A DNA stretch of 64,000 bases from a bacterium (GTDB lineage: Bacteria > Patescibacteriota > Dojkabacteria > SC72), in NCBI GenBank assembly GCA_021108295.1, contig JAIORF010000102.1, positions 110,027 through 174,026 of the forward strand, written 5' to 3'. A program made the translations under genes and the position numbers. The notes below the pieces were generated by a model. That model searched no databases. It worked only from the letters and a program-made list of their open reading frames with translations, and was not told the origin of the DNA. Numbering within the stretch: the stretch's first letter is position 1; each line of letters begins with the position of its first letter. This document shows positions 28,488 to 55,358 of this stretch, piece after piece.

Positions 28488-28598
28488 TGAAATTAGAATT
28501 ATTGAATAGAAACTTTATTATTAACTCCAAACCCTTGATGATAAGAAAGAATTAGTTTATTATTAAGTAGAAACTATATTCTAATAATTTAGTAACAA

Positions 28599-31223: not shown

Positions 31224-31234
31224 TTTGCAGTGGT

Positions 31235-32050
31235 TTGATATATAATGGACATATGCAGATTATCTTAATCATATTCGCCTTTTTAGTAGGTATTGTATCT
31301 GCTAGTTTTCTTAATGCTTTGATGTATAGGTTGGATAAAGAATATAAGTATCCAAACATATTTGTTAAACCTTCTCATTGTGAGAAGTGTAATAAACAAT
31401 TAAAGAGTTATGATCTTGTTCCTATCTTGTCATACATCTTTTCTAGAGGTAAATGTAGTAAGTGTGGGTCTAAGATTACAGTCTACTATCCGATATCCGA
31501 GTTGATACTGGGTATTTCTTTTGCATTATTCTTTTTGAATGGTGTGTCATGGTTTATGTATTTTGTTTTAATCTTTCTCTTCTGTCTCTGCTATTTTGAT
31601 TATATTTATAAAGCTATACCCCAAGTCCCTACTCTACTATTTAATGTGTTGGGTATAATGTATGTGATAGTATTATCTGTTGTTGCGAAAGAGTTGGTAC
31701 TAAATGCTCTTCTCTCAGGGATATTGCTCTTGTCTGGTATGTGCATATTGCTAATTGTAATGTACGGAATTAAGGGTTTTACTATTAAAGATGGTCTAGA
31801 AGGATTAGGTAGTGGTGATTTCCTCATTCTTTTTGGTTTAAGTATGCTTTTGTCTATAGAACAGTTTTGGGTGATGTTCTGGATATCAATTCTACTTGCA
31901 CTACTCTTCTTTATACCGAGTTCCATATTAGGAAAGATGAATTTGAAATCCTCTCTTCCACTTCTACCTTTCTTTACTTTGGGATATATCGTAGTGGTAG
32001 TGTATGGTGAGAGTATATTTGAATATGTAGAGGGTGTGTTGATGATGTAG
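31235..32050 (+). CDS. pilD: Prepilin peptidase PilD (A24 family)
   Basis: N-terminal CEKC...CSKCG zinc-finger-like motif, 6-8 TM helices, catalytic Asp motifs FDYIYKAIP and GSGDFLILFG. Confidence 0.85.
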   Translation: MIYNGHMQIILIIFAFLVGIVSASFLNALMYRLDKEYKYPNIFVKPSHCEKCNKQLKSYDLVPILSYIFSRGKCSKCGSKITVYYPISELILGISFALFFLNGVSWFMYFVLIFLFCLCYFDYIYKAIPQVPTLLFNVLGIMYVIVLSVVAKELVLNALLSGILLLSGMCILLIVMYGIKGFTIKDGLEGLGSGDFLILFGLSMLLSIEQFWVMFWISILLALLFFIPSSILGKMNLKSSLPLLPFFTLGYIVVVVYGESIFEYVEGVLMM

Positions 32051-32112
32051 AGGGTTTACTAGGAGGTATTGATGACAAAAGGTATTTCGGCTATTATAGA
32101 GAGTGAAGTAAA

Positions 32113-32787
32113 TTGATTTACTGCCTAATGGAAAAGATAAGAGCGTATACATTAATGGAAATGTTAATTGTTATGACCATTATGGTGATTCTTCTCTCCG
32201 TTGGTATTTATTCATATGCCTCTTTTGCAAAGACTACTCAGTTTAATCAAGATGTGGCAGATATCCAAAATGATGTATTAATTATGCAAAGAGCTGCTAT
32301 GCTCTTTGAGAAAGATCCTGATGAATATTGGTTGTACGGTATTGGAATTGATTTTGAGGATCTTAGTAGTGGTGACGGGAAATATTCTTTTTTTAAGTGG
32401 TGTTCGGAGTATCCTGATTTCGGTGGTGTGAGGACTAAGAGTGAGTATCCTAATTACGATCCAGCCTATTCGTTTAGTGAGACTAACGGGAATATTCCAA
32501 CAGGTATATCTGAAGGGACTTGTAATGGCGCAATGAAGTTGGTTAAGTTGTCTGGATATGGTGTAGGGAATTTAAATCTGGATGAGGATGTATCTATTGC
32601 AAATGGTAGGTTTCTTCTTTTTGAAGCTGTGTCTGGTAGAGCTTTTATCTATGATTCTAGTGGTGTTTTGGTAAATGATGCAAATATTGAGATTACTTTG
32701 GATAAGAGGGTTGGTGATATACATGTGTTAGTTATTAAAAATTTAACAGGTAGAATTGAATTAATTAATATAGGGGATGATGAATAA
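32113..32787 (+). CDS. Minor pilin / pseudopilin
   Basis: (M)EKIRA|YTLMEMLIVMTIMVILL prepilin N-terminus with E at +5 and Ala at -1. Confidence 0.7.
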   Translation: MIYCLMEKIRAYTLMEMLIVMTIMVILLSVGIYSYASFAKTTQFNQDVADIQNDVLIMQRAAMLFEKDPDEYWLYGIGIDFEDLSSGDGKYSFFKWCSEYPDFGGVRTKSEYPNYDPAYSFSETNGNIPTGISEGTCNGAMKLVKLSGYGVGNLNLDEDVSIANGRFLLFEAVSGRAFIYDSSGVLVNDANIEITLDKRVGDIHVLVIKNLTGRIELINIGDDE

Positions 32788-33346
32788 AAGAATAAAAGCT
32801 TTGGGTTTTGTAGAAGTTATGATTGCTATAGTGGTAGTTGGTATTGTGTCTGCTGTTTTTCTTACCATTTCTGCTAGAGCAATGAAGGCTCTTGTACAAA
32901 CAGAAAGATTGGAATATATGTCTAGGATTGCTACGGATGGTGCCAATATTGCACAAGAGGTAGCTAATCAACAAAAGGCAGCATTAACTGGCGAGGGTCC
33001 TTACTTCCCCTCAGAGGCTATTGATGTAGGACGCTGTTTTATTCCGTTTAGAGAAGAGAGTGGAGAAAATGTGTTTTACTACTTCTTACGTGAGGAGGGA
33101 GGTATGGAGGGGCAGTTCATTTCAATTCTTAATGGTGATGATACGGAGACACGAGACCTTTTTATAGAAAATGGTGCAGATACACATGAAGACTATTTTC
33201 TTGTGATGTGTATTCAGTCTATGGATGCTACAGGTACTAGATGGGCTAATGTCGAGTTTAGGGTGGGTGATGTAAAGTTGGCTGGTGTACGAACTACGGA
33301 TAGTGATCTTAAAGATTTTAAATATTATGCCATTATTGATTTATGA
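32777..33346 (+). CDS. Minor pilin / pseudopilin
   Basis: MMNKRIKA|LGFVEVMIAIVVVGIV prepilin-like N-terminus (E at +5 if cleaved after KA). Confidence 0.6.
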   Translation: MMNKRIKALGFVEVMIAIVVVGIVSAVFLTISARAMKALVQTERLEYMSRIATDGANIAQEVANQQKAALTGEGPYFPSEAIDVGRCFIPFREESGENVFYYFLREEGGMEGQFISILNGDDTETRDLFIENGADTHEDYFLVMCIQSMDATGTRWANVEFRVGDVKLAGVRTTDSDLKDFKYYAIIDL

Positions 33347-34038
33347 AGAACTTTTTTAAAGCTTTTAGTTTGGTAGAGATGATAATTACGTTAGGTATTC
33401 TTTCTATAGTTATGCTTATAGCTACACAAACTCTTGTCACTATTGTTAGAGTTTCTTCTATTTCCAAATACAAAACGGTTACTAAGAATGAAATAGGGTT
33501 TTCCATGGAGTTAATAGATAGGTTGTTGTCGAATTCTAGTGTCGCTGATGTTTATGTGTATGATACTATTAATGCAAGACAGTATGATCCAGAGGCTGAA
33601 GCTATAGTAGAGGTTGATCCAGGGACTTATAATTTAGATGAGATATATAGTATAGAATTAGCCCCTGGGATTACTGGTAACGAAATACATGTTAGACCGT
33701 ATGGGTATGATATCTGGGCTTGCATAGCTCTTTTTATGGATGTAGACAATAGTAAGGGATATCTTGTGAAAAGAACAATGGGAAGTTTTGCTGATGGTCA
33801 TAAGTCTTGTTTTGATACAGGTGTTTCTCTTTCAGATCCCCTACTCGTTTTGGTGTCTGATGAGGTAATGGTTAATGAGTTTAAGGTGTCATATACTCAG
33901 AGTTCTTCTAACAACAACATCTTTTATGTAGATCTTGAGATGGAGCCTATATATTGGGTGGGTGGTAGTCATGCTGCTATAGGGAAGACTGTTTTTAGAC
34001 AGGCTGTAATTACAACTCAGGGTTTGACGTGGTATTAA
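33343..34038 (+). CDS. Minor pilin / pseudopilin
   Basis: MKNFFKA|FSLVEMIITLGILSIV prepilin N-terminus; overlaps the previous gene by 4 nt. Confidence 0.7.
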   Translation: MKNFFKAFSLVEMIITLGILSIVMLIATQTLVTIVRVSSISKYKTVTKNEIGFSMELIDRLLSNSSVADVYVYDTINARQYDPEAEAIVEVDPGTYNLDEIYSIELAPGITGNEIHVRPYGYDIWACIALFMDVDNSKGYLVKRTMGSFADGHKSCFDTGVSLSDPLLVLVSDEVMVNEFKVSYTQSSSNNNIFYVDLEMEPIYWVGGSHAAIGKTVFRQAVITTQGLTWY

Positions 34039-34042
34039 TTTA

Positions 34043-34987
34043 TTGTTAAATTATTGTATGATGAAAAAATATTACAAGGGACAGGCGTTAGCGATAGTTA
34101 TGGTGGTTTTAGTGGTTGCATCTATTATTGGTGTATCACTTTTCTCTAGGATAAGTAAGGATAAGGAGTCGGCGATTAATCAGCAGGACTCTGCTTTGGC
34201 AGAGGAGCAGTCTGATGGTATATTGGATATTTTTGTGGGTGCCGATGTTATAGCTTTGGAAACTAAAATAAGGGAAGGTGTGGGACCGTTTGAGAGTATC
34301 TCTAGTTCAGAGTTCGCCTCTTTTATTACTGATATTGGTGGAGATCCCGATGCATTACCTGATGAGGATGTAGGATGTCAGGAGGAGAGTTCAAGCATAT
34401 TGGTTACTGTTGGGCAGAGTGATGATGATGATTTTGTAGAAGTACAGCATGGTAGTGTGAGAGTTTATAGTTTAGATGGTGCTACGGTAGTAGCTCCATG
34501 TCTTCTAACTTGGAGATTTAGACCTGTAGATGAATCAGTTGCTTTCCTTGTTGCGTATATTATGAATGATGGGAGTGTTGTCACACAATCTGAAGAACAC
34601 TATTGTGTCACTTCAGATGGTTCTGCTTGTACTACAATTGAGAATGTAGAATATCTTAGTAGTTTTCTAAATACCGGAGATATGGCATCAGTTGGAGTTA
34701 TGGATGCTGATGGTGCTTATCCTAGGACTATTGATCTTGTTGCTAGGTTTGCAGCTGATGTGATAGAGATTCGTGTTATTCCTATTGCTGGTACATTGGC
34801 TGTGGCTGATTCGTTGAATGATGTGACCTGTATTGATAGGGAGTTTAGGTCTATTAAAGTTCGTTCGGAGGTTAATTGCAATGGTTCTTATAGGGGGAAG
34901 GAGATGCTTTTACCAGGTTCTGGTAATCTTGGTTATTCTCCTCTTTTTGATTATGCTATTTATGATAATGGTTTATTTCAACCTTAA
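34043..34987 (+). CDS. Pilin-like protein lacking Glu5 (PilX/ComGG-like candidate)
   Basis: MMKKYYKG|QALAIVMVVLVVASIIG hydrophobic N-terminus without E at +5. Confidence 0.4.
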   Translation: MLNYCMMKKYYKGQALAIVMVVLVVASIIGVSLFSRISKDKESAINQQDSALAEEQSDGILDIFVGADVIALETKIREGVGPFESISSSEFASFITDIGGDPDALPDEDVGCQEESSSILVTVGQSDDDDFVEVQHGSVRVYSLDGATVVAPCLLTWRFRPVDESVAFLVAYIMNDGSVVTQSEEHYCVTSDGSACTTIENVEYLSSFLNTGDMASVGVMDADGAYPRTIDLVARFAADVIEIRVIPIAGTLAVADSLNDVTCIDREFRSIKVRSEVNCNGSYRGKEMLLPGSGNLGYSPLFDYAIYDNGLFQP

Positions 34988-35007
34988 GGTATTTATTCTT
35001 TAGTAAT

Positions 35008-35391
35008 ATGGATAATAAAAAAACAATATTAATTATCGAAGACGAAAAGGTTTTGTTAGGGTCGTACTCAGAGGCTTTGGAGTCTAAAGGGTATTCTGTA
35101 TTAAAGGCCTTGGATGGTTACAAGGGGTTGGATATAATAGCGGAGAATATTGGTAAGATTAGTTTGATCCTTCTCGACCTTATGATGCCAGGTGTAGATG
35201 GTTTAGAAGTTCTTAGAACTATCAAGGATGATAAAGATAAGTATGGTAGTGTTCCCATTATTGCTCTTACCAACATGACATCAGAGAAGGTTATTAAGGA
35301 TGCTTTTGATTTGGGTGCGACATCATATTTAGTGAAAACGGACTTGGATTATGAGGGGTTAATAAAAGAGGTTAATAAATTCTTGGGTTAG
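35008..35391 (+). CDS. Stand-alone CheY-like response regulator receiver
   Basis: ILIIEDE, DLMMPGVDG (phospho-acceptor Asp), T and K positions conserved; 127 aa, no output domain. Confidence 0.8.
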   Translation: MDNKKTILIIEDEKVLLGSYSEALESKGYSVLKALDGYKGLDIIAENIGKISLILLDLMMPGVDGLEVLRTIKDDKDKYGSVPIIALTNMTSEKVIKDAFDLGATSYLVKTDLDYEGLIKEVNKFLG

Positions 35392-35449
35392 GTTCCCAAT
35401 CTTACGAGTTTCTGCTAATATGTAGATAATAATTTAAACTGTCTTAGCA

Positions 35450-36481
35450 ATGGCTAAACTGCCTGACCATGTAGGTGTTGATTTCGGTACACACTCAGTG
35501 AAAGCTGTCGAGCTTAAAGATATCACTACCCCTACTCCACAACTGGTTAATTTTGGAAGCCAAACAACTCCACAGGGTGTTATCAACAGTGAGGATAAAA
35601 ATGATCAGAAGAAATTATCTGAGGTGCTCAAGAAGCTCTATGGAGATAGTAAGATTAAGAACAAATCTGTAGTAGTTGCATTGCCTGAGTTTTCTGTATT
35701 TACTCGATTTCTAGAATTCCCTGGAGTAAAAAAAGAAGAGCTAGAAGATGCAGTTTTCTATGAAGCTAAACAATATATTCCAGTACCAATAGATGAGGTG
35801 AGAATGAGTTATGTAACCATTGGTTTTAATGAAGCTAAGAATGCTCCTCGTGTACTTCTTGTAGCTGCTCCTCTCAAGATTATAGATATATACAGAGATA
35901 TATGTGAGATGGCAGCATTAGATGTAATTGCAATAGAAACAGAGTCTGTAGCATTAGGAAGAGCCATGTATAGAGCTACTAAACAAAAGCATGTTGTTAT
36001 GTTGGATTTTGGTGCGAATAGTACAGATATGAGCATAATGCTCGATGGATATCTAGTGTTCTCTCAGAGTATCTCTATTGGGTCCGATTCTTTGACACAG
36101 TCAATAATTAATAAGTTTAATTTTGAGTATAAGCAGGCTGAGGAATACAAACGTAACTATGGAGTTGTAAAGAATGTCCTTGAAGGGAAAATATATCAAG
36201 TACTCTCCCCTATTCTGGAATCTATAATGCTTGAAGTAAGAAGAGGTATAGAGTTTTATAAAAACAAAACACTTGCACCTGCACCTACAAACTTTCTTCT
36301 TACTGGAGACGGTGCATTGCTTCCAGGTTTGTCGGAGTACATATCTTTTGCCTTAAATGTAAATGCTTCTATAGCTAACCCTTGGATGAACATTGTAGTG
36401 GATCAAAAATTTAAAGACATTATTTCCAAGAGTGGGCCTTCTTACTCTGTAGCAATTGGATTAGCACTTAAAGATGAATAA
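35450..36481 (+). CDS. pilM: Type IV pilus assembly protein PilM (actin-like ATPase fold)
   Basis: VGVDFGTHSVKAVEL N-terminal phosphate-1 motif, ~340 aa. Confidence 0.85.
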   Translation: MAKLPDHVGVDFGTHSVKAVELKDITTPTPQLVNFGSQTTPQGVINSEDKNDQKKLSEVLKKLYGDSKIKNKSVVVALPEFSVFTRFLEFPGVKKEELEDAVFYEAKQYIPVPIDEVRMSYVTIGFNEAKNAPRVLLVAAPLKIIDIYRDICEMAALDVIAIETESVALGRAMYRATKQKHVVMLDFGANSTDMSIMLDGYLVFSQSISIGSDSLTQSIINKFNFEYKQAEEYKRNYGVVKNVLEGKIYQVLSPILESIMLEVRRGIEFYKNKTLAPAPTNFLLTGDGALLPGLSEYISFALNVNASIANPWMNIVVDQKFKDIISKSGPSYSVAIGLALKDE

Positions 36482-37241
36482 TAATGAGGAGAAACAAAAT
36501 ATTGAGGTAGAGAAAAAGCAGAAGAAATCTTTTCTGTCTAATTTTGTTGAGATAGAGTCTAAAGAGAAGGTTGTTATTGAAACCAAGAATATAGCTCGTC
36601 AGGAGAAAGAAGTTAAAAAGATTAAGATAAAAGCTGAGATTGATGATGAATCACAACTCTCTGACCAAGAGAAACTACTGCTTCATACTGGTGCTGGTGT
36701 AAATCTAATACCAAAGAAATCAAAGGCTGAGGTTGTAAAAGCTAAGAAGAAGTTTTCTTTCAATGTTTCTTCTATGGTAAGTTTACTTTTGTTGGTAGTC
36801 CTTTCTTTGAGTGTTGTACTGTTTAATATTGTATCTAAGCAACAGCTGAATAGTGCAACAGAAGATTTGTTCCAGAAAGAGAGTGAGTTGGAGGTATATG
36901 GTGATATGATATTGTCAAATAATGAGATACTTGAGAGGATAGATCTTTATAAGCATTTAGAACAAGGAGTGTTTTCTCCAAAGGAAATAGTGGTATATGT
37001 TATGACAATAGTTGATAGAAGTGGCAGTATTGTTATCAGAACTTTTGATATTGGAAATGATTTGGGCTTTGAAATGAGTGGTAGTACTTCTGATTTGGCT
37101 GTAGTTGCCAAATTGTGGTATTTGTTAGGTATTGATGAAAATATTGATAATATTAATCTAGAATCTGTAGGGAAGAGTGATAAAGGGGCTTCGTTTTCGT
37201 TTAAGGGTCAACTAAATACATCTAACTTTATAGGGGATTAA
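36474..37241 (+). CDS. pilN: PilN-like bitopic protein
   Basis: Long charged N-terminal region, single TM (VSLLLLVVLSLSVVLFNIV), coiled coil, periplasmic domain; overlaps pilM by 8 nt. Confidence 0.55.
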   Translation: MNNNEEKQNIEVEKKQKKSFLSNFVEIESKEKVVIETKNIARQEKEVKKIKIKAEIDDESQLSDQEKLLLHTGAGVNLIPKKSKAEVVKAKKKFSFNVSSMVSLLLLVVLSLSVVLFNIVSKQQLNSATEDLFQKESELEVYGDMILSNNEILERIDLYKHLEQGVFSPKEIVVYVMTIVDRSGSIVIRTFDIGNDLGFEMSGSTSDLAVVAKLWYLLGIDENIDNINLESVGKSDKGASFSFKGQLNTSNFIGD

Positions 37242-37961
37242 ATGTCCATTGGTATTTCTAAGAACAATTTGGATAATAGAAAGGTTGGTAAGAAGCTAGC
37301 TACTATTAGTAAGAGGTCTAAGAAGAGTCAATTAGAGTTATCTGATTTGGTTATTCCGTTATCTTCTTTTGTAATATTAGTACTTCTTACATTCTTTGTG
37401 TTTATACCCATGGTTGAAACGGCAAATGAGAGTAGAGCTGAGTTAAAAGAAGTACAAGAAAAGTTGACAGCATTAAATACATTGGAGAGTAAGTTAGGAG
37501 AGATGAATGAGACTTCATTGTTGGAAGATTTGGTAATGGTCAAAACGATTATACCAAAGGTTTTACAAGTTTCAAGTTTTGTTTATTACATTGATACTCT
37601 TGCGATGAGTAAAGATTTGGTGACGAGAGAGATAAGTGCGGGGGATGTTAATATTGGAGGTGATCCTACTGAGTCCAAGACAAGTCAGGGTGTAAGTGGT
37701 CCGCTTTCCTACTCTGGTAGGTACGAGGATGTTCTAGATTTCTTGGAAGAGATGCAGGGGTATTCTCCATATTTAGTTACATTAAGAAACATTTCGTTGA
37801 CAGGAGGAGAAGAGAATTGGTCTGTGAGTTTTGATTTAGTTGGTTACTATATTCCAGAGGAGAGTAAGAAGTTGGATCTTTATGTGCCATTTACGCCATA
37901 TACTTCTTTTTCGGATATTATAGATAGTTTTTCACTTAGAGTAAGTAAGCTGGATGAATAG
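37242..37961 (+). CDS. pilO: PilO-like bitopic protein
   Basis: Single TM (FVILVLLTFFVFIPMV) followed by a coiled coil; starts 1 nt after pilN. Confidence 0.5.
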   Translation: MSIGISKNNLDNRKVGKKLATISKRSKKSQLELSDLVIPLSSFVILVLLTFFVFIPMVETANESRAELKEVQEKLTALNTLESKLGEMNETSLLEDLVMVKTIIPKVLQVSSFVYYIDTLAMSKDLVTREISAGDVNIGGDPTESKTSQGVSGPLSYSGRYEDVLDFLEEMQGYSPYLVTLRNISLTGGEENWSVSFDLVGYYIPEESKKLDLYVPFTPYTSFSDIIDSFSLRVSKLDE

Positions 37962-39914: not shown

Positions 39915-40091
39915 CTATTTACTTTTCTTTGAAGTTCTTGCGTAGTAACCACAGTATGCACATTCGAAATGTGGTTTTTTGGCATGTCCACACTTAGGGC
40001 ATTTGTTTGTAGCTATACTTTTAAGTCCGTCTTGGGCTCTTCTTCTATTTTTTCTTCCTTTAGAAATCCTTCTTTTTGGTAATGCTGCCAT
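39915..40091 (-). CDS. rpmF: 50S ribosomal protein L32
   Basis: Not in the ORF track (58 aa). Minus-strand translation MAALPKRRISKGRKNRRRAQDGLKSIATNKCPKCGHAKKPHFECAYCGYYARTSKKSK with the CxxC...CxxC zinc ribbon typical of L32. Confidence 0.8.
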   Translation of the reverse strand: MAALPKRRISKGRKNRRRAQDGLKSIATNKCPKCGHAKKPHFECAYCGYYARTSKKSK

Positions 40092-40152
40092 TTCGTTTAT
40101 TTGTTATGTTAATCTTTGTGATTATATATAATTAATGGGGTTTATTCAATAT

Positions 40153-42867
40153 TTATATTATCCAACTGTCCTTTATACTAATTTCATCACCACTTTTTAG
40201 GTTTCCTTCTAGTATTTCTTGTGCGATTTTCCCTTCTATTTGATCTTGTATATATCTTTTGAGTGGTCTTGCACCCATACCAGGTATATTGGATTTGTCA
40301 GAGATGAGCATTGGTATCTGATCTGACCATTGGAGTATATATCCTTTCTTCCCTAATCTTTTGGATAGTTGAGTTAGTAGTAGGATGGTGATTTTACTTA
40401 GGTTTTCTAGACTGTGTGGTTGGAATACGATTACCTTATCAAATCTATTGAGTAGCTCTGGTCTAATACTGTGTTGTAATTCTATTAGTGCTTTACTCTT
40501 TGCTTCTTCCCAGAGGGAATTACTCTGCTGTAATGTTTCTAGGAGTGTGAGACTACCAATGTTGCTTGTACATATGATTATGGTATTTGTGAAATCTACA
40601 GTTTCTCCACTATTACTAGTTAGTCTTCCTTCGTCAAAGATTTGTAAGAAGAGATCCAATATTTGAGGGTGAGCTTTCTCGATTTCGTCAAAGAGGACTA
40701 CAGTGTATGGGTTGCTTTTTATCTGGTCTATTAGTGAGATAGAGCTTTTACCAAATTCTGGGGTAGTACTTCCTAAGAATTTCTCAATGCTTTTTATATC
40801 TTGGTATTCAGACATGTCGATTCTAATCATTTTCTTGTCTTCTCCAAAGAATTCTTCGCATACAACCTTGCTGATATGTGTTTTACCAACACCAGTTGGT
40901 CCCATGAAGAGGAATGTCCCTATGGGTTTGTTTGGATCCCTTATATCTGTTCTAGCTCGTCTAAGAGCGTCTACAATGGTGAGAATTGCTTCGTCTTGCC
41001 CTACTACTTTACTCTTGATGTTTTCTTCGAGTTTCATAAGGTTTGTACTTTCTTCTGCAGATATTGGTGTAATATTTATATTCTTTTGTAGAGAGATAGC
41101 TTTTGCTACATGCTCTGAGGTTAGTAATTTTATTTGGTTAGCTTGAGCCCAAGAGCATGCTGACTCTATTGTCGCTACTGCACTACTAGGTAGTTTCTTT
41201 TCTTTAATATATCTTTGAGCTAATTCTACAGCAGATATTAGGGCTGGGAAGGTGATGTAACATCCGAAGTTCTTTTCTAGTATTTCAATCTTAGTCTCAA
41301 GGATGTAGAGTGCATCGTCTAGTGATATTTCTGCTACTTCTATATTGGTGAAGGTTTGTCTTAGGGATTCGTTGTTGTAGAAATATTTCTTGTAATCCGA
41401 GTGATTGACAGTTCCCACTATTGGGAATTTGCTATCTAGTATGTATGGTAGGAGTATGCCTGCAATTGAGTGTCCTGATTCTTGTGCTTTGGTTGGCATT
41501 AGTTCTTGCATCTCATCGATGAAGAGGATTACATCTCCTGCTTGTGCTAATTCGTTCATGGCTTTTGCTATGAGTTCTTCCATGTTTTGTCCTGGTTTAG
41601 ATGCGTGTGCAATGAGGGCGTTTATATCTAGTTTGATTATTCTCTTGTCCTTAATCTGTAGTGGTACATCTCCTCTATTTATTCTTTGTGCTACCCCGAG
41701 TATGAGGCTGGATTTTCCTGTACCCGGCTCTCCTATTAGGAGTGCGTGTTTGTTATTTACTTTACCTAGTATAGATACTAGTGCTTCTATTTCTAGGTCG
41801 TGTCCTATTCCAAAGACATCTCTTGTCTTGGCAATTTGTTCTGTAATATTTGTACTGAAGTGGTTAAGTATGAATGTGTATCCATATATCCATTGTTCTG
41901 CAATCCCTCCTTTTTTGTAGTAAGCGACATTAGGGTTGAAAATGTTTGTAGCAAGGTTTCTCTTTCTTAGTCTTGCATTGTATCTTACAATTTCTCTTAG
42001 TATATCTAGGCTACTGTTGTTTGCCTGTAGAAATTTTTGTAGTGTTGGAAATACTTTAGTTAGTGCTAGAAAGAGGTGCTCGGGTCTCACTATTTGAGAC
42101 TCTGTGAGTAGTGCTTCTTCTACAGCGTAGAGGAGTATACTTCTAAGAGAGGTTGCTGGGTATGTTGGTAGTGTTTCTGGGTTGATTTTGTTTTCGTTTA
42201 GTTCTCCTGCATCTATTTGTATATCTGCTCTTTTAAGTATCTCTTTTATATTGGGTACATTTAATAGTGTGATGAATGTGGAGTGAATAGAGAATTGATT
42301 CTTTTGTGTATTGTCACATACCAGATTGAGTGTATCATCATTAATGTACTTAATTGCGTCTAGGTTGCTGTAGTGGTTAAATTTGAATCCTACTGTTTTT
42401 ACTTCTTCATATTCTTTTTGTGGAATTATTTCAGTTTTGGGTAATCTAATTGGATGGCTTCTATCTTTGTAGTAGTCGTGCCAGAGTGCAAGGACGCTGA
42501 GGATTGATATTCCAAAGAGAAGATTTGCTATTGAACTGTTAAAGAAGTTTTTGAGTATTAAGATGTCGTCTAGTACACCTAGGAATTGGAGCATGTAACC
42601 TAGTGCTACTATTAGGCCTGGTATGAGGAGGGCATTTGATATTGTTCTTCTGGTATTTTCGAATTTAGCGGTTCTAAGAGAGTTGGTGATTACATTGCTT
42701 ATTTGTGGTGTGGATATTGTGAAGTAGTGGTTTCTAGTTACCAGAAACATTGCGTCTAACTCTTTTGTGAGTATTGGTAGCTCTTTTTCTATGACACCGT
42801 AGGAGTTATTGTCTCTTGAGTGATATCCTAGTATTGTTCTGTTTTGCCATCCGTAGTCTATTGCCAT
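40153..42867 (-). CDS. Membrane-anchored double-AAA+ Clp-family ATPase (ClpA/ClpC-like D1+D2, no M-domain)
   Basis: Two TM helices at residues ~75-125, Clp_N-like repeat, D1 Walker A GEPGTGKSS / Walker B ILFIDEM, D2 Walker A GPTGVGKTH / VVLFDEIEKAHP, sensor-2 GARPLKR; 904 aa. Confidence 0.8.
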   Translation of the reverse strand: MAIDYGWQNRTILGYHSRDNNSYGVIEKELPILTKELDAMFLVTRNHYFTISTPQISNVITNSLRTAKFENTRRTISNALLIPGLIVALGYMLQFLGVLDDILILKNFFNSSIANLLFGISILSVLALWHDYYKDRSHPIRLPKTEIIPQKEYEEVKTVGFKFNHYSNLDAIKYINDDTLNLVCDNTQKNQFSIHSTFITLLNVPNIKEILKRADIQIDAGELNENKINPETLPTYPATSLRSILLYAVEEALLTESQIVRPEHLFLALTKVFPTLQKFLQANNSSLDILREIVRYNARLRKRNLATNIFNPNVAYYKKGGIAEQWIYGYTFILNHFSTNITEQIAKTRDVFGIGHDLEIEALVSILGKVNNKHALLIGEPGTGKSSLILGVAQRINRGDVPLQIKDKRIIKLDINALIAHASKPGQNMEELIAKAMNELAQAGDVILFIDEMQELMPTKAQESGHSIAGILLPYILDSKFPIVGTVNHSDYKKYFYNNESLRQTFTNIEVAEISLDDALYILETKIEILEKNFGCYITFPALISAVELAQRYIKEKKLPSSAVATIESACSWAQANQIKLLTSEHVAKAISLQKNINITPISAEESTNLMKLEENIKSKVVGQDEAILTIVDALRRARTDIRDPNKPIGTFLFMGPTGVGKTHISKVVCEEFFGEDKKMIRIDMSEYQDIKSIEKFLGSTTPEFGKSSISLIDQIKSNPYTVVLFDEIEKAHPQILDLFLQIFDEGRLTSNSGETVDFTNTIIICTSNIGSLTLLETLQQSNSLWEEAKSKALIELQHSIRPELLNRFDKVIVFQPHSLENLSKITILLLTQLSKRLGKKGYILQWSDQIPMLISDKSNIPGMGARPLKRYIQDQIEGKIAQEILEGNLKSGDEISIKDSWII

Positions 42868-42872
42868 TTCAT

Positions 42873-43274
42873 TTATACAAAAAATGATCTAAGGGTAAAT
42901 ATTATGGTGGTTGGTGGGAGTAGTAGCCAGAAGAAGAGAAAGAGGGTGTATGTGAGTGTGATTATTATGAGAATCGTTATTGCAATTGGTAGGTAGAGTG
43001 TTTTAGAGAGTATTCCTACAATATATCCTATGAGGTTTTTGTCTCTGTGCCACGGTAGGAAGAAGTTCCTTGTTAGTAGGCTTAGTGAGAGGTTGTCATC
43101 TAGTACAATGATGAGTCTTTTAAGCGTTCTTAGGTGCCATATTGGCATTTGTATGTACCACCATTTGAGGAAGTTGTTTAGGAAAGTTAGCAAAATCTCA
43201 AAGTATGAATTTACTTTGGTCTCGTTGAGTAATTGTTGACCCGAGTTATCGAGTAGTAAGTTTTTAGATTCCAT
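42873..43274 (-). CDS. Small membrane protein, upstream partner of the Clp-like ATPase
   Basis: 133 aa with a C-terminal hydrophobic region; 5 nt upstream of the ATPase gene on the same strand. Confidence 0.4.
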   Translation of the reverse strand: MESKNLLLDNSGQQLLNETKVNSYFEILLTFLNNFLKWWYIQMPIWHLRTLKRLIIVLDDNLSLSLLTRNFFLPWHRDKNLIGYIVGILSKTLYLPIAITILIIITLTYTLFLFFWLLLPPTTIIFTLRSFFV

Positions 43275-43358
43275 AGTTGACAGTGGATATATTATATATG
43301 AAATTGGGGTTAATGGTAAGGAGAGGGTGTGTCCTATATATTTTTGATATAATGTGGA

Positions 43359-45330: not shown

Positions 45331-46581
45331 ATGAAAATTGCCAAGATATTTGCTCAGGAGGTTTTAGACTCAAGAGGTAATCCTACTGTTGAGTGTAGTG
45401 TTGTATTGGAGAATGATATTAAAGCATCTGCCATAGTGCCTAGTGGTGCTTCTACGGGTACATATGAGGCTGTGGAGTTAAGGGATGGGGATATGGATAG
45501 ATACTTAGGTAAGGGTGTTCTTAAAGCTATTGAGAATGTAAATACAAAGATAGCAGAGGTTGTAGTTGGTATGGATGTAGAGGATCAGAGGGAGATAGAT
45601 CAAGCTATGATAGCTTTGGATGGGAGTAGTGATAAGTCTAATCTTGGTGCTAATGCAATTCTTTCTGTATCTATGGCTTGTGTGAGGGCTGCTTCCCTAT
45701 CTCAAGGTATACCAATGTATGAGTATGTAGCTACTTTGTTTGGTAATAGTACAGATGAGTATGAGATGCCAGTACCAATGATTAATGTTTTAAATGGTGG
45801 TAGGCATGCTAATGGTGCTTCTGATATTCAGGAGTATATGTTTATGCCAGTTGGTGCATCTAATATTGAGGAGGCTGTAAGGTGGGGTTCTGAGTGTTTC
45901 CATCACTTGGGTAATATTTTAAAGGAGATGGATTTTAGTACTACAGTTGGTGATGAGGGTGGTTATGCTCCTTCTTTGGGTAGTAATGAGAAGCCTTTGG
46001 AGTTAATGGTTCAGGCTATTAAGAAGGCTAATCTTAAAGCTGGTGAGGATATGTGTATTGGTATTGATGCTGCGGCTAATGAGTTTTTTGAGGAGGGTAA
46101 GTATGAGCTTAAGGCAGATAGTATGAGTTTGAGTAGTGAGGAGTTGTGTAGTATGTATATGGAGTGGGTAGAGAGGTATCCTTTAATTTTGATAGAGGAT
46201 GGTTTTGGAGAGGATGACTGGGATGGTTTTGTACTTTTAGAGAAGAGGTTGGGAGAGAGGATTATGAATGTGGGTGATGATTTGTATGTGACTAGTATTG
46301 AGAGATTAGAGAGGGGTATTAAGGAAGAGGCTACTAATTCCATTCTTATTAAGCTTAATCAGATAGGGAGTGTTACTGAGACAATAGAGGTGATGAAGAG
46401 GGCTAGTGAGGTTGGTATGAAGTGTATGGTTTCTCATAGGTCTGGGGAAACAGAGGATACTTTTCTTGCTGATTTTGTAGTTGGTGCTGGTACAGGTTTT
46501 ATTAAAACAGGTTCTATGAGTAGGAGTGAGAGGGTTGGGAAGTATAATAGGTTGATGAGGATAGAGAGGGAGTTAGGTTAG
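45331..46581 (+). CDS. eno: Enolase
   Basis: MKIAKIFAQEVLDSRGNPTVE... and the enolase signature region. Confidence 0.95.
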   Translation: MKIAKIFAQEVLDSRGNPTVECSVVLENDIKASAIVPSGASTGTYEAVELRDGDMDRYLGKGVLKAIENVNTKIAEVVVGMDVEDQREIDQAMIALDGSSDKSNLGANAILSVSMACVRAASLSQGIPMYEYVATLFGNSTDEYEMPVPMINVLNGGRHANGASDIQEYMFMPVGASNIEEAVRWGSECFHHLGNILKEMDFSTTVGDEGGYAPSLGSNEKPLELMVQAIKKANLKAGEDMCIGIDAAANEFFEEGKYELKADSMSLSSEELCSMYMEWVERYPLILIEDGFGEDDWDGFVLLEKRLGERIMNVGDDLYVTSIERLERGIKEEATNSILIKLNQIGSVTETIEVMKRASEVGMKCMVSHRSGETEDTFLADFVVGAGTGFIKTGSMSRSERVGKYNRLMRIERELG

Positions 46582-47778
46582 GTCAATTTTGTCCCTAGCA
46601 GAAGTTGTTAAAGAATTATAAGTTTCTGGGAAGTTGTTTTGTAGATATACGAGGAATTGGTATGTAGTAGTTATTAGTGTGACGATGTCTCTTTCTACAG
46701 CTTTTGTCATAGGAATCTCTGAGGTTAGTTCTGCTTTGTTAGTCATGTAAGATATCTTTGCTAAGTAAGTAATTGCAATATTAGTCATTCTGTCAAAGGT
46801 TAGTTGAAAGAGTTTTTGTGTACCGAGTTCTAGTTGCTGACTCATAAAGTCTTCGCCGAAGAATCCTATGTGTTGTTGCTCAGCCAAAAGGTTTTGAACC
46901 CTTTTCTTCATTATATCTGTTGTAGCATTAGTTAATATGGAATGTGCAGCTTCTCGAACTTGTTCGTTTTGGGAGAGGTTAAGTAGTAAGAGGGCTTGTG
47001 AGTAAAAGAATATCTTGTCGTCTACCATTTGTTGAACTAGTGGGTTGAGCCCTTCGTGGAAGCGAACAGCATTAGATAATGAGGAGGGGCTTACTTGCAT
47101 ACGTTCGGCAAAGTCAGCTTGGGTTGCATCAGGATTGTTTTCAATGAACATTTGCCATAGATTATAGAAGACAGTCGCTTTTTCTGTCGAAGTCATTGGG
47201 ATATGGAGATTTTCATCCATTTTTATTCTTAGTTGTTGTTCAGGAGTCATTTCGTAAAGAAAGAGTTTAATAAGGATGGGTGCTTGCCAATTTGAAATAT
47301 GTGCGATACCTCTTCTTCTATGATCTCCAGCTTGTACTCTTATTTTTCCATTTGGTCCAAGGTCAGCAATACATGGGTTGAGTTGTTCGTTAGTAATTAT
47401 ATTCTCTCCTAGTTCAATGGCGTGGTCCATATTAAGTGGTCTAATATTGTTTGTTGGGAGGGTTTGGTTTACGGGTAGGGATATGATTACCCAATCTTGA
47501 TCTTCCATGGTACCAATTATTTCTATTTGCTCTTCTTGAAGGAGTTCTTCGTATGTTAATACGGTATTTGGAGGGGTTTCTGTAAGAATTCTAAAATTCT
47601 CTATTGTTAATTGTTTCAGTACTAATAAGTCTCCTGTTTGTGTAATTTCTCTCAGATTTCTTATATTGATGTCTGTAGTGAGGTCAGGGTGATGAACTGT
47701 TACAACCCTTTGTATTCTTTCGCTCTTGTTCTGATTCTTCATAAGAGCAATGATAAACGAATAGAAGCCTATTGGCAA
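46573..47778 (-). CDS. ParB/Spo0J-like protein (ParB N-terminal domain + HTH), orphan with no adjacent parA
   Basis: GKIRVQAGDHRRRGIAH resembles the ParB GERRxRA box; HTH TQADFAERMQVSPSSLSNAVRF; ~100-aa N-terminal extension. Confidence 0.45.
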   Translation of the reverse strand: MPIGFYSFIIALMKNQNKSERIQRVVTVHHPDLTTDINIRNLREITQTGDLLVLKQLTIENFRILTETPPNTVLTYEELLQEEQIEIIGTMEDQDWVIISLPVNQTLPTNNIRPLNMDHAIELGENIITNEQLNPCIADLGPNGKIRVQAGDHRRRGIAHISNWQAPILIKLFLYEMTPEQQLRIKMDENLHIPMTSTEKATVFYNLWQMFIENNPDATQADFAERMQVSPSSLSNAVRFHEGLNPLVQQMVDDKIFFYSQALLLLNLSQNEQVREAAHSILTNATTDIMKKRVQNLLAEQQHIGFFGEDFMSQQLELGTQKLFQLTFDRMTNIAITYLAKISYMTNKAELTSEIPMTKAVERDIVTLITTTYQFLVYLQNNFPETYNSLTTSARDKIDLT

Positions 47779-50656: not shown

Positions 50657-51634
50657 TTAGCCCTTCCAAGATTTAAATTCTCTCCCTATCCTTTTCATAC
50701 TATAAAACTTCCCTTTATTATCAGTAGGCTTCTTCAATATCCCCTTGCATACCGATTCTATTGGACAATTTGTGTTCTTCTCTCCATTACCCTTACTACA
50801 ACCTTGGCTACCAATTAGCCATAAAGATTCAGAGATTTCTTTCATATTCCAACCAAATTCCCTGCTTAATTCCTGAAATAAAGGAAGGAGAATCTTATAT
50901 GATAAATTGTGGGAGTGGATTTCATCTCCTATCTCTACAATTCCTGTCTGAATGGCAATTCTTGATAATTGGAAATCTATTGGAAGGCCAAAATCATTTA
51001 ACCCTTCTAAATCATAGAGATTATATCTACCAACCCATTGGAGATATAATGCTGCAAGTTTTGGTCCTAATCTATGGAATTCTTTCTGAGCTCTTTTTGC
51101 TCTTGGTGCTACATACAATGCTTTCCATACCTCTTCTGCATTATTATTATGTTTTATAAAGAAGTTTCTTATATCGCCATCATAATTTCGTGTGAGTATT
51201 GAACAGTTGTGATACCAGCTGTTTAAGCTGTTTTTCTGGTATCCTAAGGGTCTTAAATATTCTAGACAAGCTTCGAGGGTGTCGTCTTCTCCATTTCTTA
51301 GAACTTCTTCAGGAGAGAATATCCAAGAATGGCTTTCGAAGAGATAAGAATTCTTAAGAAGTCTATCAAAGAAGACAGAGGTTCTTGTGCTGTATATTGT
51401 TGTAGAGAGTAGTAGTAGACTGTTCAGTAAATATTTGTCATTTACGTCTTTTTCTATTAGAAAGTTTATGTAACTTTCTTCTGGCTGATTTTTGTCTTTG
51501 AAGAATTTACTTTCGGGATTGTTATATTCGGCGAGTGCAAGTTGAATAACTTCTATTGCTCTCTCTTCGTTCACGATACAATTAAGTTCGTTGTTGATAG
51601 GTTCTTTTTCAGACATTACACTAGGATTCGACAT
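50657..51634 (-). CDS. HhH-GPD superfamily DNA glycosylase-like protein
   Basis: HhH element HRLGPKLAALYLQWVG followed by an LPIDFQLSRIAIQTGIV Asp loop; C-terminal Cys cluster CSKGNGEKNTNCPIESVC (3 Cys). Confidence 0.4.
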   Translation of the reverse strand: MSNPSVMSEKEPINNELNCIVNEERAIEVIQLALAEYNNPESKFFKDKNQPEESYINFLIEKDVNDKYLLNSLLLLSTTIYSTRTSVFFDRLLKNSYLFESHSWIFSPEEVLRNGEDDTLEACLEYLRPLGYQKNSLNSWYHNCSILTRNYDGDIRNFFIKHNNNAEEVWKALYVAPRAKRAQKEFHRLGPKLAALYLQWVGRYNLYDLEGLNDFGLPIDFQLSRIAIQTGIVEIGDEIHSHNLSYKILLPLFQELSREFGWNMKEISESLWLIGSQGCSKGNGEKNTNCPIESVCKGILKKPTDNKGKFYSMKRIGREFKSWKG

Positions 51635-51796: not shown

Positions 51797-52795
51797 TTGA
51801 CAGATCTCATTGTTATAGGTTATTATCCCTCCATGGCTGAATCTGAGACTAAATCTGAAGAAGGATTATCAAGGGGAGAATTTCTCAAAGTACTAGGTGT
51901 AACAGCTACTGCTGCACTCGTAGGTGGCTGCGTAGCCGATATGGACTTACCTTCTACTTCTACAACTCCATCACCTTTTCCTCCAACCGAGACACCGCCA
52001 CCAGTGACTCCAACCCCCACACCAACTGAAACATTAGCTCCATCTGAAACGCCTGATGTATGGGAATTGTCACTTTCTCAGCGGATTGAATTAATGAAAG
52101 ACCTCGAGTTTTATTCAGATTTACACGATGGAAATACTAGGAAAATTCTTACGTTTCAATTGGATAAGGAGGAGTACCTAGGACACCCTACTAGAATACT
52201 TGATCATGACAACTGCTGTGGAGAGGCAACTTTAGCTACTATTATAAAGATGTGCGAGTATTTAAATACGTCTAAAGTTCCAGATATTACCATTGCTGAT
52301 ATTCATATCGCACTTGAAGGGAAGACCTTCACAGATATAAGGGGTTACACTGCCAAATATATTGTCTGGAATGATGCAATGTATTTTGTTGGACTTCCCG
52401 ATGCTCTGAAGACCTTAGCCCCAGAGCTCATTTCGAAAACTGAGTTTTTGACGCCCGACTATGGTGCCAGATATCCAAGAATTGTTCCCCAGTCGGAATG
52501 GCCTGATATGCTTTCAAGAGCACAAGCTCTTTGTGAAGATGGTGGATTTGTAATAATTGGTGGTATGAAATATCGTGCTGGCCATATTATGCTTGGCACG
52601 GATATTAAAGAAGACGGTACGGCCATAATAGTGGAGCCACGTTGTAGAATAGCCCAAAGAGTCCTTCTTAAAGACTATTTTGAAGAGTGGGTGGACTATA
52701 GGGCTGCATCCCTGGGGAGACAACCTGCGCTTCTACATATGTTTGGTATTACCCCGAAACTGAATGTTCCAGTTAAGCCTGGATTACAAAGATAA
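51797..52795 (+). CDS. Lipoprotein with PT-rich linker and C39-like cysteine peptidase domain
   Basis: Twin-Arg-like SRGEFLK + LVGGC lipobox, PT linker, DHDNCCGEATLATII (C39-like DCGxAxL) and RAGHIML. Confidence 0.45.
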   Translation: MTDLIVIGYYPSMAESETKSEEGLSRGEFLKVLGVTATAALVGGCVADMDLPSTSTTPSPFPPTETPPPVTPTPTPTETLAPSETPDVWELSLSQRIELMKDLEFYSDLHDGNTRKILTFQLDKEEYLGHPTRILDHDNCCGEATLATIIKMCEYLNTSKVPDITIADIHIALEGKTFTDIRGYTAKYIVWNDAMYFVGLPDALKTLAPELISKTEFLTPDYGARYPRIVPQSEWPDMLSRAQALCEDGGFVIIGGMKYRAGHIMLGTDIKEDGTAIIVEPRCRIAQRVLLKDYFEEWVDYRAASLGRQPALLHMFGITPKLNVPVKPGLQR

Positions 52796-52988: not shown

Positions 52989-53567
52989 CTATCTCTTTCT
53001 AATAACCTTGTCTATTAAACCATAAGCCTTAGCCTCTTTTGCAGTAAAATACTTATCCCTATCAGCATCCCTCTCTATCTGAGCAACACTCTGCCCTGTA
53101 CCCTTCGCTAAAATCTTGTTTAATGCACCCTTAAGCTTAAGAATCTCCTCTGCCTCTATCGCTATATCAGAAGCCTGCCCCTCTACGCCACCCAAAGGCT
53201 GATGAATGAGGATCTTACTATTCGGAAGTGAAAAACGCTTACCCTTTGTACCAGATGTAAGAAGTATGGAGGCCATAGAAGCAGCCATACCAACTGCGAT
53301 AGTGGAAATATCACACTTAATGTAACTCATGGTATCCAAAATTGCTAAACCAGCAGAAATCTTACCCCCAGGAGAATTAATAAACATTTGGATATCCTCC
53401 TTCTCATTCTCCTTCTCTAAAAACAGTAACTGAGCTACTACAATATTAGCTAACTCATCACTGATAGTACCAGTTACGAATATAATTCTGTCTTTTAGTA
53501 ATCTAGAATAAAGATCGTAAGCTCTATCTCCATCTCTCTCCTTTTCAATTACTGTAGGTATTAACAT
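52989..53567 (-). CDS. clpP: ATP-dependent Clp protease proteolytic subunit
   Basis: [25 protein letters not shown]; catalytic Ser in GMAASMAS, His and Asp present. Confidence 0.95.
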
Positions 53568-53569
53568 TC

Positions 53570-54616
53570 CTATTTCTCCTCCTTATTTAAAAACTCCTTA
53601 CCAAGAGTATGAAGTATAAACTTCTTGAAAGCCTTCTCCTTCCTCTCTACCCTCTGTACATACTCCAACCACTGCTCATTATCAAATATAGATTGATCAA
53701 CATCAGGTTGAGTCTTCTTAATTACCTCTATTTTCTTATCAATATCCTCCTTCTCTACCTTAATATCTTTAGTATCTGCATACAAAGTTAGAAATACATC
53801 ACTTTCTAGAGCCTCTTTTGCATCCTTAAGCCATGCTTCCCTCATCTGCTCCATATCGATACCACTCTGTTTGATAAAATCCTCTACCTTGACACCCCTC
53901 TGTTGCATATCCTGTTCAAAAGCTTTCTCCCTTTCTTTTGCTTCAAACTCTATAGCAGCTTGTGGGACTTTGATATCAGAAAGATTAATAGCTTGCTTAA
54001 GTGCATTCTCCTGATAGCTCTGCATCAACATCTGCTCTTTTTGTGTAGTAAGAATTCTCTCTATTTCTTTTTTAAGATCCTCTAAACTCTTTATATCCTT
54101 TAACTCTAATTTCTTAGCAATCTCCTTTGCCCAACTATCACAAATACTCTTAGCCTTTGTCTCATTGTTGGTCTTAAGCTCTTTAATAGCTTGATCAACA
54201 TCCTTTTGCTCTATCTCTACTGTTTCTTTCTCAACCTTAACCTTCTTCATATTACCTAACTTAAACTTAGGCATAATTGTGGTTTCAACCTTGAATTCTA
54301 AATCATCCTTACCATCAAACTTAGGCAATTCTGAATATTTTGGAGGAGCAATTAGCTCTATCTTCTCTTTTTGAATTGCGGTATTGATATACATAGGAGC
54401 AAGTTTCTCAAAAGTATCAAACTGAAGCATAGACTTCATAGAAGGTTCAAGTAGGTCTGTAGGAACTTTCCCTTTTCTAAAACCCTTTACATTACTATCC
54501 TTAGTCTGATCTTTTAGTACTGCGTTGTATGACTTATCAAAACTCTCTCTTGGGACTGATATTGTAAGAACTATTGTATCCTCCCCCTTATCTTCTCTGG
54601 TGTACATATCTGACAT
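53570..54616 (-). CDS. tig: Trigger factor lacking a recognisable FKBP PPIase domain
   Basis: N-terminal ribosome-binding signature GFRKGKVP, helical C-terminal arms; 348 aa; upstream of clpP as usual. Confidence 0.75.
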
Positions 54617-54647: not shown

Positions 54648-55358
54648 CTACGTTTTTTGGTACAATTTGTCCAGTTTCCCAATTACAACAAGTCTTTGGT
54701 GGGATGTCCAAAGAGGAGTACATGTAATTAGGGTTACTCTGTAATCAGAACTGTCTTGGATTACAGAAATGTCATTTTTCTCTACAATCTTAACTTCAGA
54801 TACAATGTAGTTGTACTCATTACCATCTTGATTGAAGAAAAGAGTATCCCCTTTCCTTACCTTGTCTAAGTTAAAGAAGGTGTCCTTTGCAGGAGGAATA
54901 AAGAGGTATCTATGGGAGATTATTACTACATTCCCTTTCTGTCCAGGATATTTAGAGGTTGGAAAGTGCCAGAAGCCTTTGTCTAATATGTTTGAATCGC
55001 TACCTTGGAAGATGTCTCCCTCTACATCTATAGACTCTATTTTAAGTGTTGTGTTTAATTCTTCCAAGATCAAATCTATATCCCCTACTTCATCGAGATA
55101 TTCTTCAATGCTTGTGTCTTCTACTAAGATTTGAGAATTACCCAAGATTTGTTCCTTTGTAGGAGCTACTGTTGTAAGTAGTGAAAAGTACATGTCGTAT
55201 GTATATCTTTTTATATCTATTCTCTTAAAAGTACCAATGAGTGTGTTGTAGTTTGGGAGGATTAGAAGGTATGAAATTGGTACGAAAAGTAGTAGCAAAA
55301 GAATTATTGTTATGAGATATCGGTAAATTTGTTTTATCATAGTAAGGTATTCTATCAA
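54648..55358 (-). CDS. Sortase family transpeptidase
   Basis: N-terminal TM anchor, catalytic His in VVIISHRY, catalytic Cys in VTLITCTP (TLxTC), Arg in QRLVV. Confidence 0.8.
   Translation of the reverse strand: MIEYLTMIKQIYRYLITIILLLLLFVPISYLLILPNYNTLIGTFKRIDIKRYTYDMYFSLLTTVAPTKEQILGNSQILVEDTSIEEYLDEVGDIDLILEELNTTLKIESIDVEGDIFQGSDSNILDKGFWHFPTSKYPGQKGNVVIISHRYLFIPPAKDTFFNLDKVRKGDTLFFNQDGNEYNYIVSEVKIVEKNDISVIQDSSDYRVTLITCTPLWTSHQRLVVIGKLDKLYQKT

Follow-up and report, generated by a model that had tools for sequence, protein, structure and literature searches.

Within a 64,000-nucleotide (nt) stretch of a Dojkabacteria genome (assembly GCA_021108295.1, contig JAIORF010000102.1, positions 110,027 to 174,026; hereafter the window), two adjacent minus-strand genes encode a membrane-anchored Clp/Hsp100 ATPase, here termed A, and a small membrane protein, B, whose gene lies immediately upstream. 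Clp/Hsp100 proteins are soluble threading machines whose working is defined by pore-loop tyrosines, the ClpP loop and the M-domain. The A family has kept the two-ring chassis and an active-looking second ring (D2), has lost these three functional couplings, and is tied to a small membrane protein throughout the class. With moderate confidence, we take B-A to be a lineage-specific module for remodelling at the membrane's cytoplasmic face, independent of ClpP and Hsp70, driven by D2 and probably non-processive. Full-text literature searches found no description of a membrane-anchored Dojkabacteria Hsp100 family.

The domain content of A places it in the Clp/Hsp100 superfamily, but the features that define ClpA, ClpB, ClpC and ClpV are not those of A. 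Pfam searches identified AAA (3e-19), AAA_lid_9 (7e-10), AAA_2 (9e-47) and ClpB_D2-small (2e-17); these tandem AAA+ modules (AAA with AAA_lid_9, then AAA_2 with ClpB_D2-small) and a double Clp_N repeat N-domain are the features of a class-I Clp/Hsp100 protein. The NCBIfam models that matched were ClpB, ClpA, TssH, ClpK and ClpG. Scores fell far below every equivalog cut-off, including those for ClpB (TIGR03346, 467 versus 1232 bits) and ClpA (TIGR02639, 403 versus 993), as well as for TssH (TIGR03345, 369 versus 885) and NF008263 (304 versus 1350). The ClpA model aligned in one stretch (residues 333-899) and the ClpB model in two, while the spacing from Walker A to Walker A was 277 residues in A (274-277 across the family) compared with 281 in Escherichia coli ClpA and 399 in ClpB (alignment numbering). 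Together, this spacing and the split ClpB match indicate that A has no M-domain, in agreement with the original prediction, which was made from the sequence of the window.

The N-terminal third of A sets the family apart. An AlphaFold2 model of residues 1-345, built on a 13-sequence family alignment (predicted local distance difference test score (pLDDT) 81.9, predicted template-modelling score 0.79), comprises a beta domain (12-50), a long helix that leads into the first transmembrane (TM) segment (53-95), a second TM helix (112-133) and a helical domain (150-306). The four strands of the beta domain lie at residues 12-17, 22-25, 38-43 and 47-50 (block pLDDT 81-90), and its conserved pattern is GYH.K...G / LP / PFL.T; residues 10-52 returned no match in Pfam or the PDB. 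Hydropathy analysis (Kyte-Doolittle, 19-residue window) gave hydrophobic segments at ~78-100 and 108-130, with maxima of 2.06 and 1.85, where the model has the helices 53-95 and 112-133. A TM-like segment falls within the first 200 residues of all 119 full-length relatives, and cluster representatives with as little as 24% identity keep a hydrophobic segment in the corresponding position. These data bear out the two TM helices originally predicted, and the Clp_N-like repeat noted at the same time corresponds to a complete but diverged N-domain fold (Table 1). The K/R-rich flanks and short acidic loop of the hairpin suggest an N-in/C-in topology. Such a topology would make the beta domain, N-domain and ATPase modules cytoplasmic and bring the N-domain/D1 face of the protein close to the membrane; the beta domain is accordingly treated here as probably cytoplasmic.

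Table 1. Features of the B-A locus and of other parts of the window discussed in the text (window coordinates; residue numbers refer to A or B).
Feature	Residues	Position	Strand	Remarks
Gene A		40153..42867	minus	904 amino acids (aa); membrane-anchored class-I Clp/Hsp100 ATPase
N-terminal four-stranded beta domain	A 10-52	42712..42840	minus	family-specific
Transmembrane hairpin	A 78-130	42478..42636	minus	TM1 ~78-98, TM2 ~112-130; ends in conserved LWHDYY
Clp/Hsp100 N-domain	A 151-306	41950..42417	minus	complete fold, strongly diverged sequence
D1 AAA+ module plus lid	A 346-585	41113..41832	minus	both Walker motifs kept (A, GEPGTGKS, 379-386; B, IDE)
D1 pore-1 loop position	A 421-429	41581..41607	minus	HASKPGQNM versus ClpB GAKYRGEFE; no tyrosine
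D2 AAA+ module plus D2-small	A 586-904	40156..41112	minus	most conserved part of A
D2 pore-1 loop position	A 699-711	40735..40773	minus	GSTTPEFGKSSIS versus ClpA/ClpB GAPPGYVG[FY]
D2 sensor-1 to arginine-finger segment	A 773-802	40462..40551	minus	no docking tripeptide; ClpA has IGL, ClpC VGF there
Gene B		42873..43274	minus	133 aa; small membrane protein, obligate upstream partner of A
SGQQLLNE motif in N-terminal tail	B 11-22	43209-43244	minus	strongly conserved in main Dojkabacteria clade
FFLPWHRD motif	B 71-78	43041..43064	minus	most conserved motif of B family
Hydrophobic stretch	B 81-130	42885..43034	minus	47-50 hydrophobic residues; conserved K91, P96, P120
Candidate promoter upstream of B		43291..43319	minus	TTACCA-17-TATAAT; 10/12 matches; weak evidence
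58-aa open reading frame (MAALPKRRISKGRKNRRRAQ...CPKCG...CAYCG)		39915-40091	minus	occupies most of the 254-nt A-nusB gap
tig-clpP pair		52989-54616	minus	ClpP 52989..53567, intact Ser-His-Asp triad
Type IV pilus cluster		20517-37961	plus	PilB-like T2SSE with MshEN, PilT-like T2SSE, PilC/T2SSF, PilM

To compare the two ATPase rings with those of characterised enzymes, 16 diverse members of the A family were aligned with E. coli ClpA and ClpB (from NC_000913), and motifs were counted in 119 full-length relatives of A and 120 soluble paralogs. Intact motifs had originally been predicted in both rings, and the strings quoted (GEPGTGKSS, ILFIDEM, GPTGVGKTH, VVLFDEIEKAHP and GARPLKR) all occur in the translation of A; the Walker A and B motifs of both rings stand, but the sensor and arginine motifs are intact in D2 only. 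In the D1 of A, the arginine fingers ERRF have become LRQTF, many members are without any basic residue at this position, and [ED]RRF was found in 0 of the 119 family members versus 120 of the 120 soluble paralogs. In D2, every catalytic motif is kept: Walker A GPTGVGKT (656-663), Walker B LFDEIEKAHP, sensor-1 TSN, the arginine finger NRFD and sensor-2 GARP. Mean pairwise identity is 0.50 for the D2 large domain, whereas the N-terminal parts of A (beta domain, hairpin and N-domain) reach 0.20-0.30.

The pore-1 tyrosines used for threading by class-I Clp/Hsp100 proteins (KYR in D1, GYVG in D2) are absent from both rings of A; like the missing D1 arginine fingers, these losses had escaped the original prediction. 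No member among the 119 has the aromatic-[RK]-G motif in D1, and the G-aromatic-[VIL]-G motif of D2 was likewise found in none of them, compared with 119 of the 120 soluble paralogs. The D2 loop also varies within the family: relatives at 75-77% identity carry STGQSGQTS, and three distant members (P0234, P0245 and P0259) have the loop deleted. A similar picture was obtained for the ClpP-docking loop, the IGF/IGL element that was sought in D2 by alignment to ClpA and ClpC (whose D2 reference fragments were verified against PDB chains) and of which A has none. The segment between sensor-1 and the arginine finger is 30 residues long in 120 of 124 family members, a ClpB-like length, and the docking tripeptide [ILVM]G[FLM] is missing there from A and from 123 of the 124, the single exception being a chance LGL.

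The lineage also encodes a conventional soluble Hsp100, which serves as an internal reference. At locus L057, a canonical 805-aa soluble protein (2603-5020, minus strand) with Clp_N, KYRGEFE, ERRF and GYVGY lies 3 kb from a membrane-family member, P0256, and its B-like gene (7639-10658, plus strand). A search with this soluble protein recovered 120 close homologues, several of them named Dojkabacteria. All 120 have ERRF and 119 have G-aromatic-V-G. Their two Walker A motifs are spaced by 338-339 residues, and a TM-like N-terminus is present in none of them; the ClpP tripeptide was found in 0 of 106. These comparisons place A as a paralog of the soluble Dojkabacteria Hsp100 and not as the only Hsp100 of the lineage. 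Because neither the D1 arginine fingers nor the D2 pore loop has been lost from the soluble paralog, the losses seen in A are, as judged from the alignments, specific to the membrane family and not a product of lineage-wide drift.

Erosion has gone further in a few members of the membrane family. In P0256, the Walker A pattern was matched in neither ring and the D2 Walker B looks degenerate, while in P0238, P0253, P0230 and P0232 it is the Walker B or the sensor motifs that have degenerated (in D2, to 'IDYIEE' and 'GDVELINLRQ', for example). The latter four keep the hairpin and, where examined (L056, P0230), a small upstream open reading frame (ORF), and could be either second copies or orthologs that have become pseudo-ATPases.

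The N-terminal architecture of A is conserved but restricted to the Dojkabacteria lineage. More than 100 full-length homologues of ~905 aa were recovered at 57-100% identity, aligned over 100% of the query, which rules out the suggestion that the N-terminal region belongs to a separate upstream gene joined through a missed frameshift. All those with a source name come from Candidatus Dojkabacteria or WS6, and the databases name them ClpA/ClpC; for this family, the label 'ATP-dependent Clp protease ATP-binding subunit ClpA/ClpC' is functionally misleading. When residues 1-345 were searched with HMMER against 1.84 billion cluster representatives, 39 proteins were found, of which ~15 are full-length and the most distant of these share 24% identity. 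When a single genome was scanned for each GTDB species, 45 loci came up, mostly titled Dojkabacteria/WS6 or bearing placeholder labels, with one titled Microgenomates and one Nomurabacteria.

The pairing with B proved as constant as the architecture of A. Both ORFs lie where they had originally been placed (Table 1), and the tight coupling to a small membrane protein noted at the time holds throughout: B-A is a strictly conserved two-gene unit in every locus examined. In the window, the stop of B and the start of A are 5 nt apart, and across all loci the distance ranges from -10 to +15 nt. A B homologue was present directly upstream on the same strand in 41 of the 41 GTDB species-representative loci that have upstream DNA, and the remaining four, which gave no B match, begin at a contig end. 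The same arrangement was seen in 8 metagenome loci, including the very distant L003, L004, L005, L006, L056 and L057. Neighbours beyond B-A are kept only in collinear Dojkabacteria and differ in distant relatives. Among the latter, a LemA gene lies directly downstream of the membrane Hsp100 gene at L006 (8703-9254), and at L005 a Band_7/SPFH gene (6911-7801) lies two genes downstream, an anecdotal observation; SPFH proteins regulate FtsH in other bacteria.

B itself resembles nothing in the collections searched. Its 107 homologues are mostly 132-134 aa long. B has no match in Pfam, NCBIfam or PADLOC, and a fold search returned only generic helical hairpins, with no informative match and no AAA-like fold. 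Within the FFLPWHRD motif, P74 does not vary in either family alignment (A4 or A5), and F71, F72, W75 and R77 are invariant in A5 and present in at least 90% of sequences in A4; the most distant partners still show it as F.PW[HK][RK]D. The hydrophobic stretch that follows (hydropathy maximum 2.56) is long enough for a two-pass hairpin, and AlphaFold2 models residues 81-130 as a single long helix. Flanking K/R residues point to a probable N-in/C-in topology for B. The N-terminal tail is predicted to be disordered (pLDDT ~46-52), and its SGQQLLNE motif is absent from more distant homologues; one may speculate that this motif is a docking peptide for the N-domain of A.

Set beside the known classes, A shares different features with each. 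Like ClpA, it has the order double-repeat N-domain, D1, lid, D2 and D2-small (in A, after the anchor) and no M-domain. Unlike ClpA, it carries a beta domain and a TM hairpin and lacks the IGL loop, the pore-loop tyrosines and the D1 arginine fingers; and no clpS adjoins it, its upstream neighbour being the gene for the small membrane protein instead. By score, ClpB/Hsp104 is closest to the D2 of A (1qvr, E = 1e-112; TIGR03346, E = 1.5e-139) and has the same length of segment between sensor-1 and arginine finger, without a ClpP loop. It differs in that A is membrane-anchored and without the M-domain (used for Hsp70 docking), pore loops and D1 arginine fingers. ClpV/TssH offers a parallel as an Hsp100 independent of ClpP and Hsp70, with an N-domain specialised for one dedicated client. 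ClpV is soluble, keeps functional pore-loop tyrosines and threads VipB. No type VI secretion genes were found among the window ORFs scanned with Pfam (a part of all ORFs) or in the flanks of related loci.

Taken together, these features suggest a mechanism that we consider the most likely one. B-A would be a two-gene membrane module particular to the Dojkabacteria, which are uncultured bacteria (candidate division WS6, within the Patescibacteria or Candidate Phyla Radiation). A is a rebuilt paralog of their soluble Hsp100. It has gained the N-terminal beta domain and the transmembrane hairpin, through which the ring would be held by its N-domain/D1 face against the membrane, on the cytoplasmic side, and it has lost the pore-1 tyrosines of both rings and the D1 arginine fingers, with the catalytic motifs of D2 intact. 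Having neither an M-domain nor a ClpP-docking loop, A should work with neither DnaK nor ClpP. D1 would bind ATP mainly for holding the oligomer together, leaving D2 as the sole real motor, and ATP turnover in D2 would drive a non-processive conformational cycle, like that of a switch or remodeller, in place of classical polypeptide threading. This cycle would act on a membrane-proximal client. Choosing that client may fall to B together with two parts of A, its beta domain and its diverged Clp N-domain, and B in turn could be a membrane-embedded adaptor or cofactor, or itself the client. The architecture of A, its motif losses and retentions, its paralogy and its strict linkage to B are read from the sequences, whereas the N-in/C-in topology, assembly into a hexamer, the way D1 and D2 share the work, the absence of threading and the part played by B are elements that we infer. 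If this is correct, bacteria have put the Hsp100 scaffold to a new, non-threading use at the membrane, as eukaryotes have with Torsins, and B-A would offer a tractable two-protein system for studying how an AAA+ ring functions without pore loops.

Several points weigh against a D2-driven remodelling module of this kind. Its oligomeric state, ATPase activity and topology are all features that we infer, and the physical link between B and A is supported by gene adjacency and translational coupling only. In many members of the main clade, the D2 loop has an F, L or I, frequently followed by G, that could still grip a polypeptide weakly and so allow threading. The D2 motor ring would also be the one farthest from the membrane, which makes it hard to see how its cycle would reach a membrane client without translocating a polypeptide. 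Finally, the eroded Walker motifs of P0256, P0238, P0253 and P0230/P0232 raise the prospect that ATP turnover may not be essential to the core role.

A more specific version of this reading, which we put forward only tentatively, is that B-A is a convergent bacterial counterpart of machines of the Torsin-cofactor or Bcs1 type, that is, a non-threading, membrane-embedded ring derived from an Hsp100. Torsins are related to the D2 of Clp/Hsp100 proteins, are membrane-associated through an N-terminal hydrophobic domain and have no aromatic pore loops (PMC5425593); they depend on the membrane-spanning LAP1 and LULL1 and are thought to act non-processively (PMC5425593). Of the known systems, Torsin with its cofactors is the one that B-A resembles most. 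The likeness lies in the logic of a membrane tether, missing threading loops and an obligate membrane partner, and is one of analogy, with homology only through D2 ancestry. By contrast, a Torsin of the eukaryotic ER and nuclear envelope is a single luminal ring whose arginine finger is supplied by an AAA-like cofactor, whereas A has two rings, of which D2 has its own arginine finger and D1 is the one without; and B, consisting of an 80-residue helical segment and a hairpin, is too small for an AAA-like activator. Membership of A in the Torsin family itself was rejected on the same features (two rings, its own D2 arginine finger, and a B that is not AAA-like); the Pfam Torsin model matched A with E = 1.3e-4 and 22.5 bits against a cut-off of 27. 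Under a Torsin- or Bcs1-like mode of action, D2-driven cycling with an obligate small cofactor would remodel a membrane complex or the membrane itself, and possible targets include the envelope, pilus or cell-surface assemblies needed by host-dependent bacteria with reduced genomes. A would then be the first membrane-integral, non-threading bacterial member of the Clp/Hsp100 proteins.

An alternative is that A is an unfoldase for membrane-protein extraction and quality control, lying under the membrane like FtsH or Msp1 and pulling misfolded or orphan membrane proteins into its axial channel to release them unfolded, with B as the substrate adaptor. The geometry would suit this role, since the N-terminal anchor would turn the N-domain/D1 entry face towards the membrane, just as the N-terminal TM anchors of FtsH and Msp1/ATAD1 set the substrate-entry face of their rings there. 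In addition, D2 is catalytically complete, a bulky aliphatic or aromatic residue (FG, LG or IG) is frequent in the D2 loop of the main clade, and the LemA and Band_7/SPFH genes lie near two distant family members. FtsH and Msp1/ATAD1 differ from A, however, in being single rings of the classical AAA clade, FtsH with an M41 protease domain, whereas A has two Clp-type modules and no Pfam match to Peptidase_M41. Aromatic pore loops are essential in FtsH and Msp1/ATAD1, and, to our knowledge, all characterised threading AAA+ motors (ClpX, ClpA, ClpB, FtsH and Msp1) use gripping pore loops. In A, no conserved aromatic or hydrophobic pore-1 residue is found in either ring across the 119 members, and the STGQSGQTS loop of its close relatives and the loop deletions described above count against this role. 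With no coupled protease and no M-domain, an extracted protein would also be without a defined fate, and some orthologs have lost their Walker motifs. The original proposal of extraction by unfolding is thus weakened by the tyrosines missing from both rings, although the anchor geometry still fits, and we regard it as rather doubtful.

It is also conceivable, but unlikely, that A serves chiefly as a membrane scaffold, structural or regulatory, in which nucleotide binding controls assembly alone and the conserved role is to organise B or another membrane complex, without mechanical work. The members with eroded Walker A/B and sensor motifs (P0256 at L057, P0238, P0253 and P0230) would fit this view, as the hairpin, the N-domain and a B gene upstream have nevertheless been retained in them, and so would the absence of D1 arginine fingers throughout the family. 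Set against this, all D2 catalytic motifs, including the trans-acting arginine finger and sensor-2, are kept in the main clade and in most of the distant representatives, and the status of D2 as the most conserved region indicates selection for hydrolysis.

That A is instead the ATPase partner of the ClpP encoded in the window (52989-53567), forming a membrane-bound, ClpAP- or ClpCP-like protease that could stand in for FtsH, now appears very improbable. Cooperation with this ClpP was part of the original prediction, which offered a hypothetical FtsH-like functional replacement as the other possibility. This ClpP has an intact Ser-His-Asp triad, no clpX follows or adjoins its gene within the window, and the database name of A, 'ATP-dependent Clp protease ATP-binding subunit', would point the same way. 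However, the docking tripeptide is absent from 123 of the 124 members, the segment that would carry it is of ClpB-like length, and the pore loops that would feed ClpP are missing; moreover, clpP lies 10 kb from A and was linked to it in no locus examined. Since a ClpP-docking loop is lacking in the soluble Dojkabacteria Hsp100 as well as in the membrane family, ClpP presumably works with a ClpX encoded outside the window.

Least probable of all is a role for B-A in anti-phage defence or conflict, as a mobile module. Candidate defence systems do include some ClpB-like AAA+ proteins, and the D2 core gave partial PADLOC matches to DolB and PDC-M37B, but these are confined to the generic AAA_2 core (residues ~520-772), and PADLOC returned nothing for B. 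The surroundings of the pair are also those of housekeeping genes (Dus / B-A-rpmF-nusB-rnc-rpsP-KH) and are stable throughout the class, and the pair was present in every locus recovered, with one locus per species-representative genome.

In the window, this gene order continues into a type IV pilus cluster, 2 kb from the B-A operon, which includes two long ORFs without a Pfam match (26661-28487, 608 aa, and 28599-31223, 874 aa). A functional tie between B-A and the pilus cluster was considered and rejected, as adjacency is seen only in closely syntenic Dojkabacteria and is read as genome collinearity; pilus genes do lie near B-A in the distant relative L006, and none lie near it in L003, L004 or L005. 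Upstream of B, the site at 43291..43319 is a candidate only, because counts of promoter-like sites and terminators in the region were no higher than in shuffled sequences. The short ORF between A and nusB is one that we take, from its sequence pattern alone, to encode ribosomal protein L32 (rpmF). A 54-aa homologue occupies the equivalent position in L001, and a promoter-like site (40121-40149) lies just upstream of the ORF in the window.

Elsewhere in the window, further ORFs of 325-1191 aa had no Pfam match at E<=1e-5, at 6489-10064 (plus strand), 4751-6415 (minus) and 46573-47778 (minus), as did those at 50657-51634 (minus) and 51797-52795 (plus). Beside the tig-clpP pair, a gene at 54648-55358 on the minus strand encodes a sortase-domain protein.

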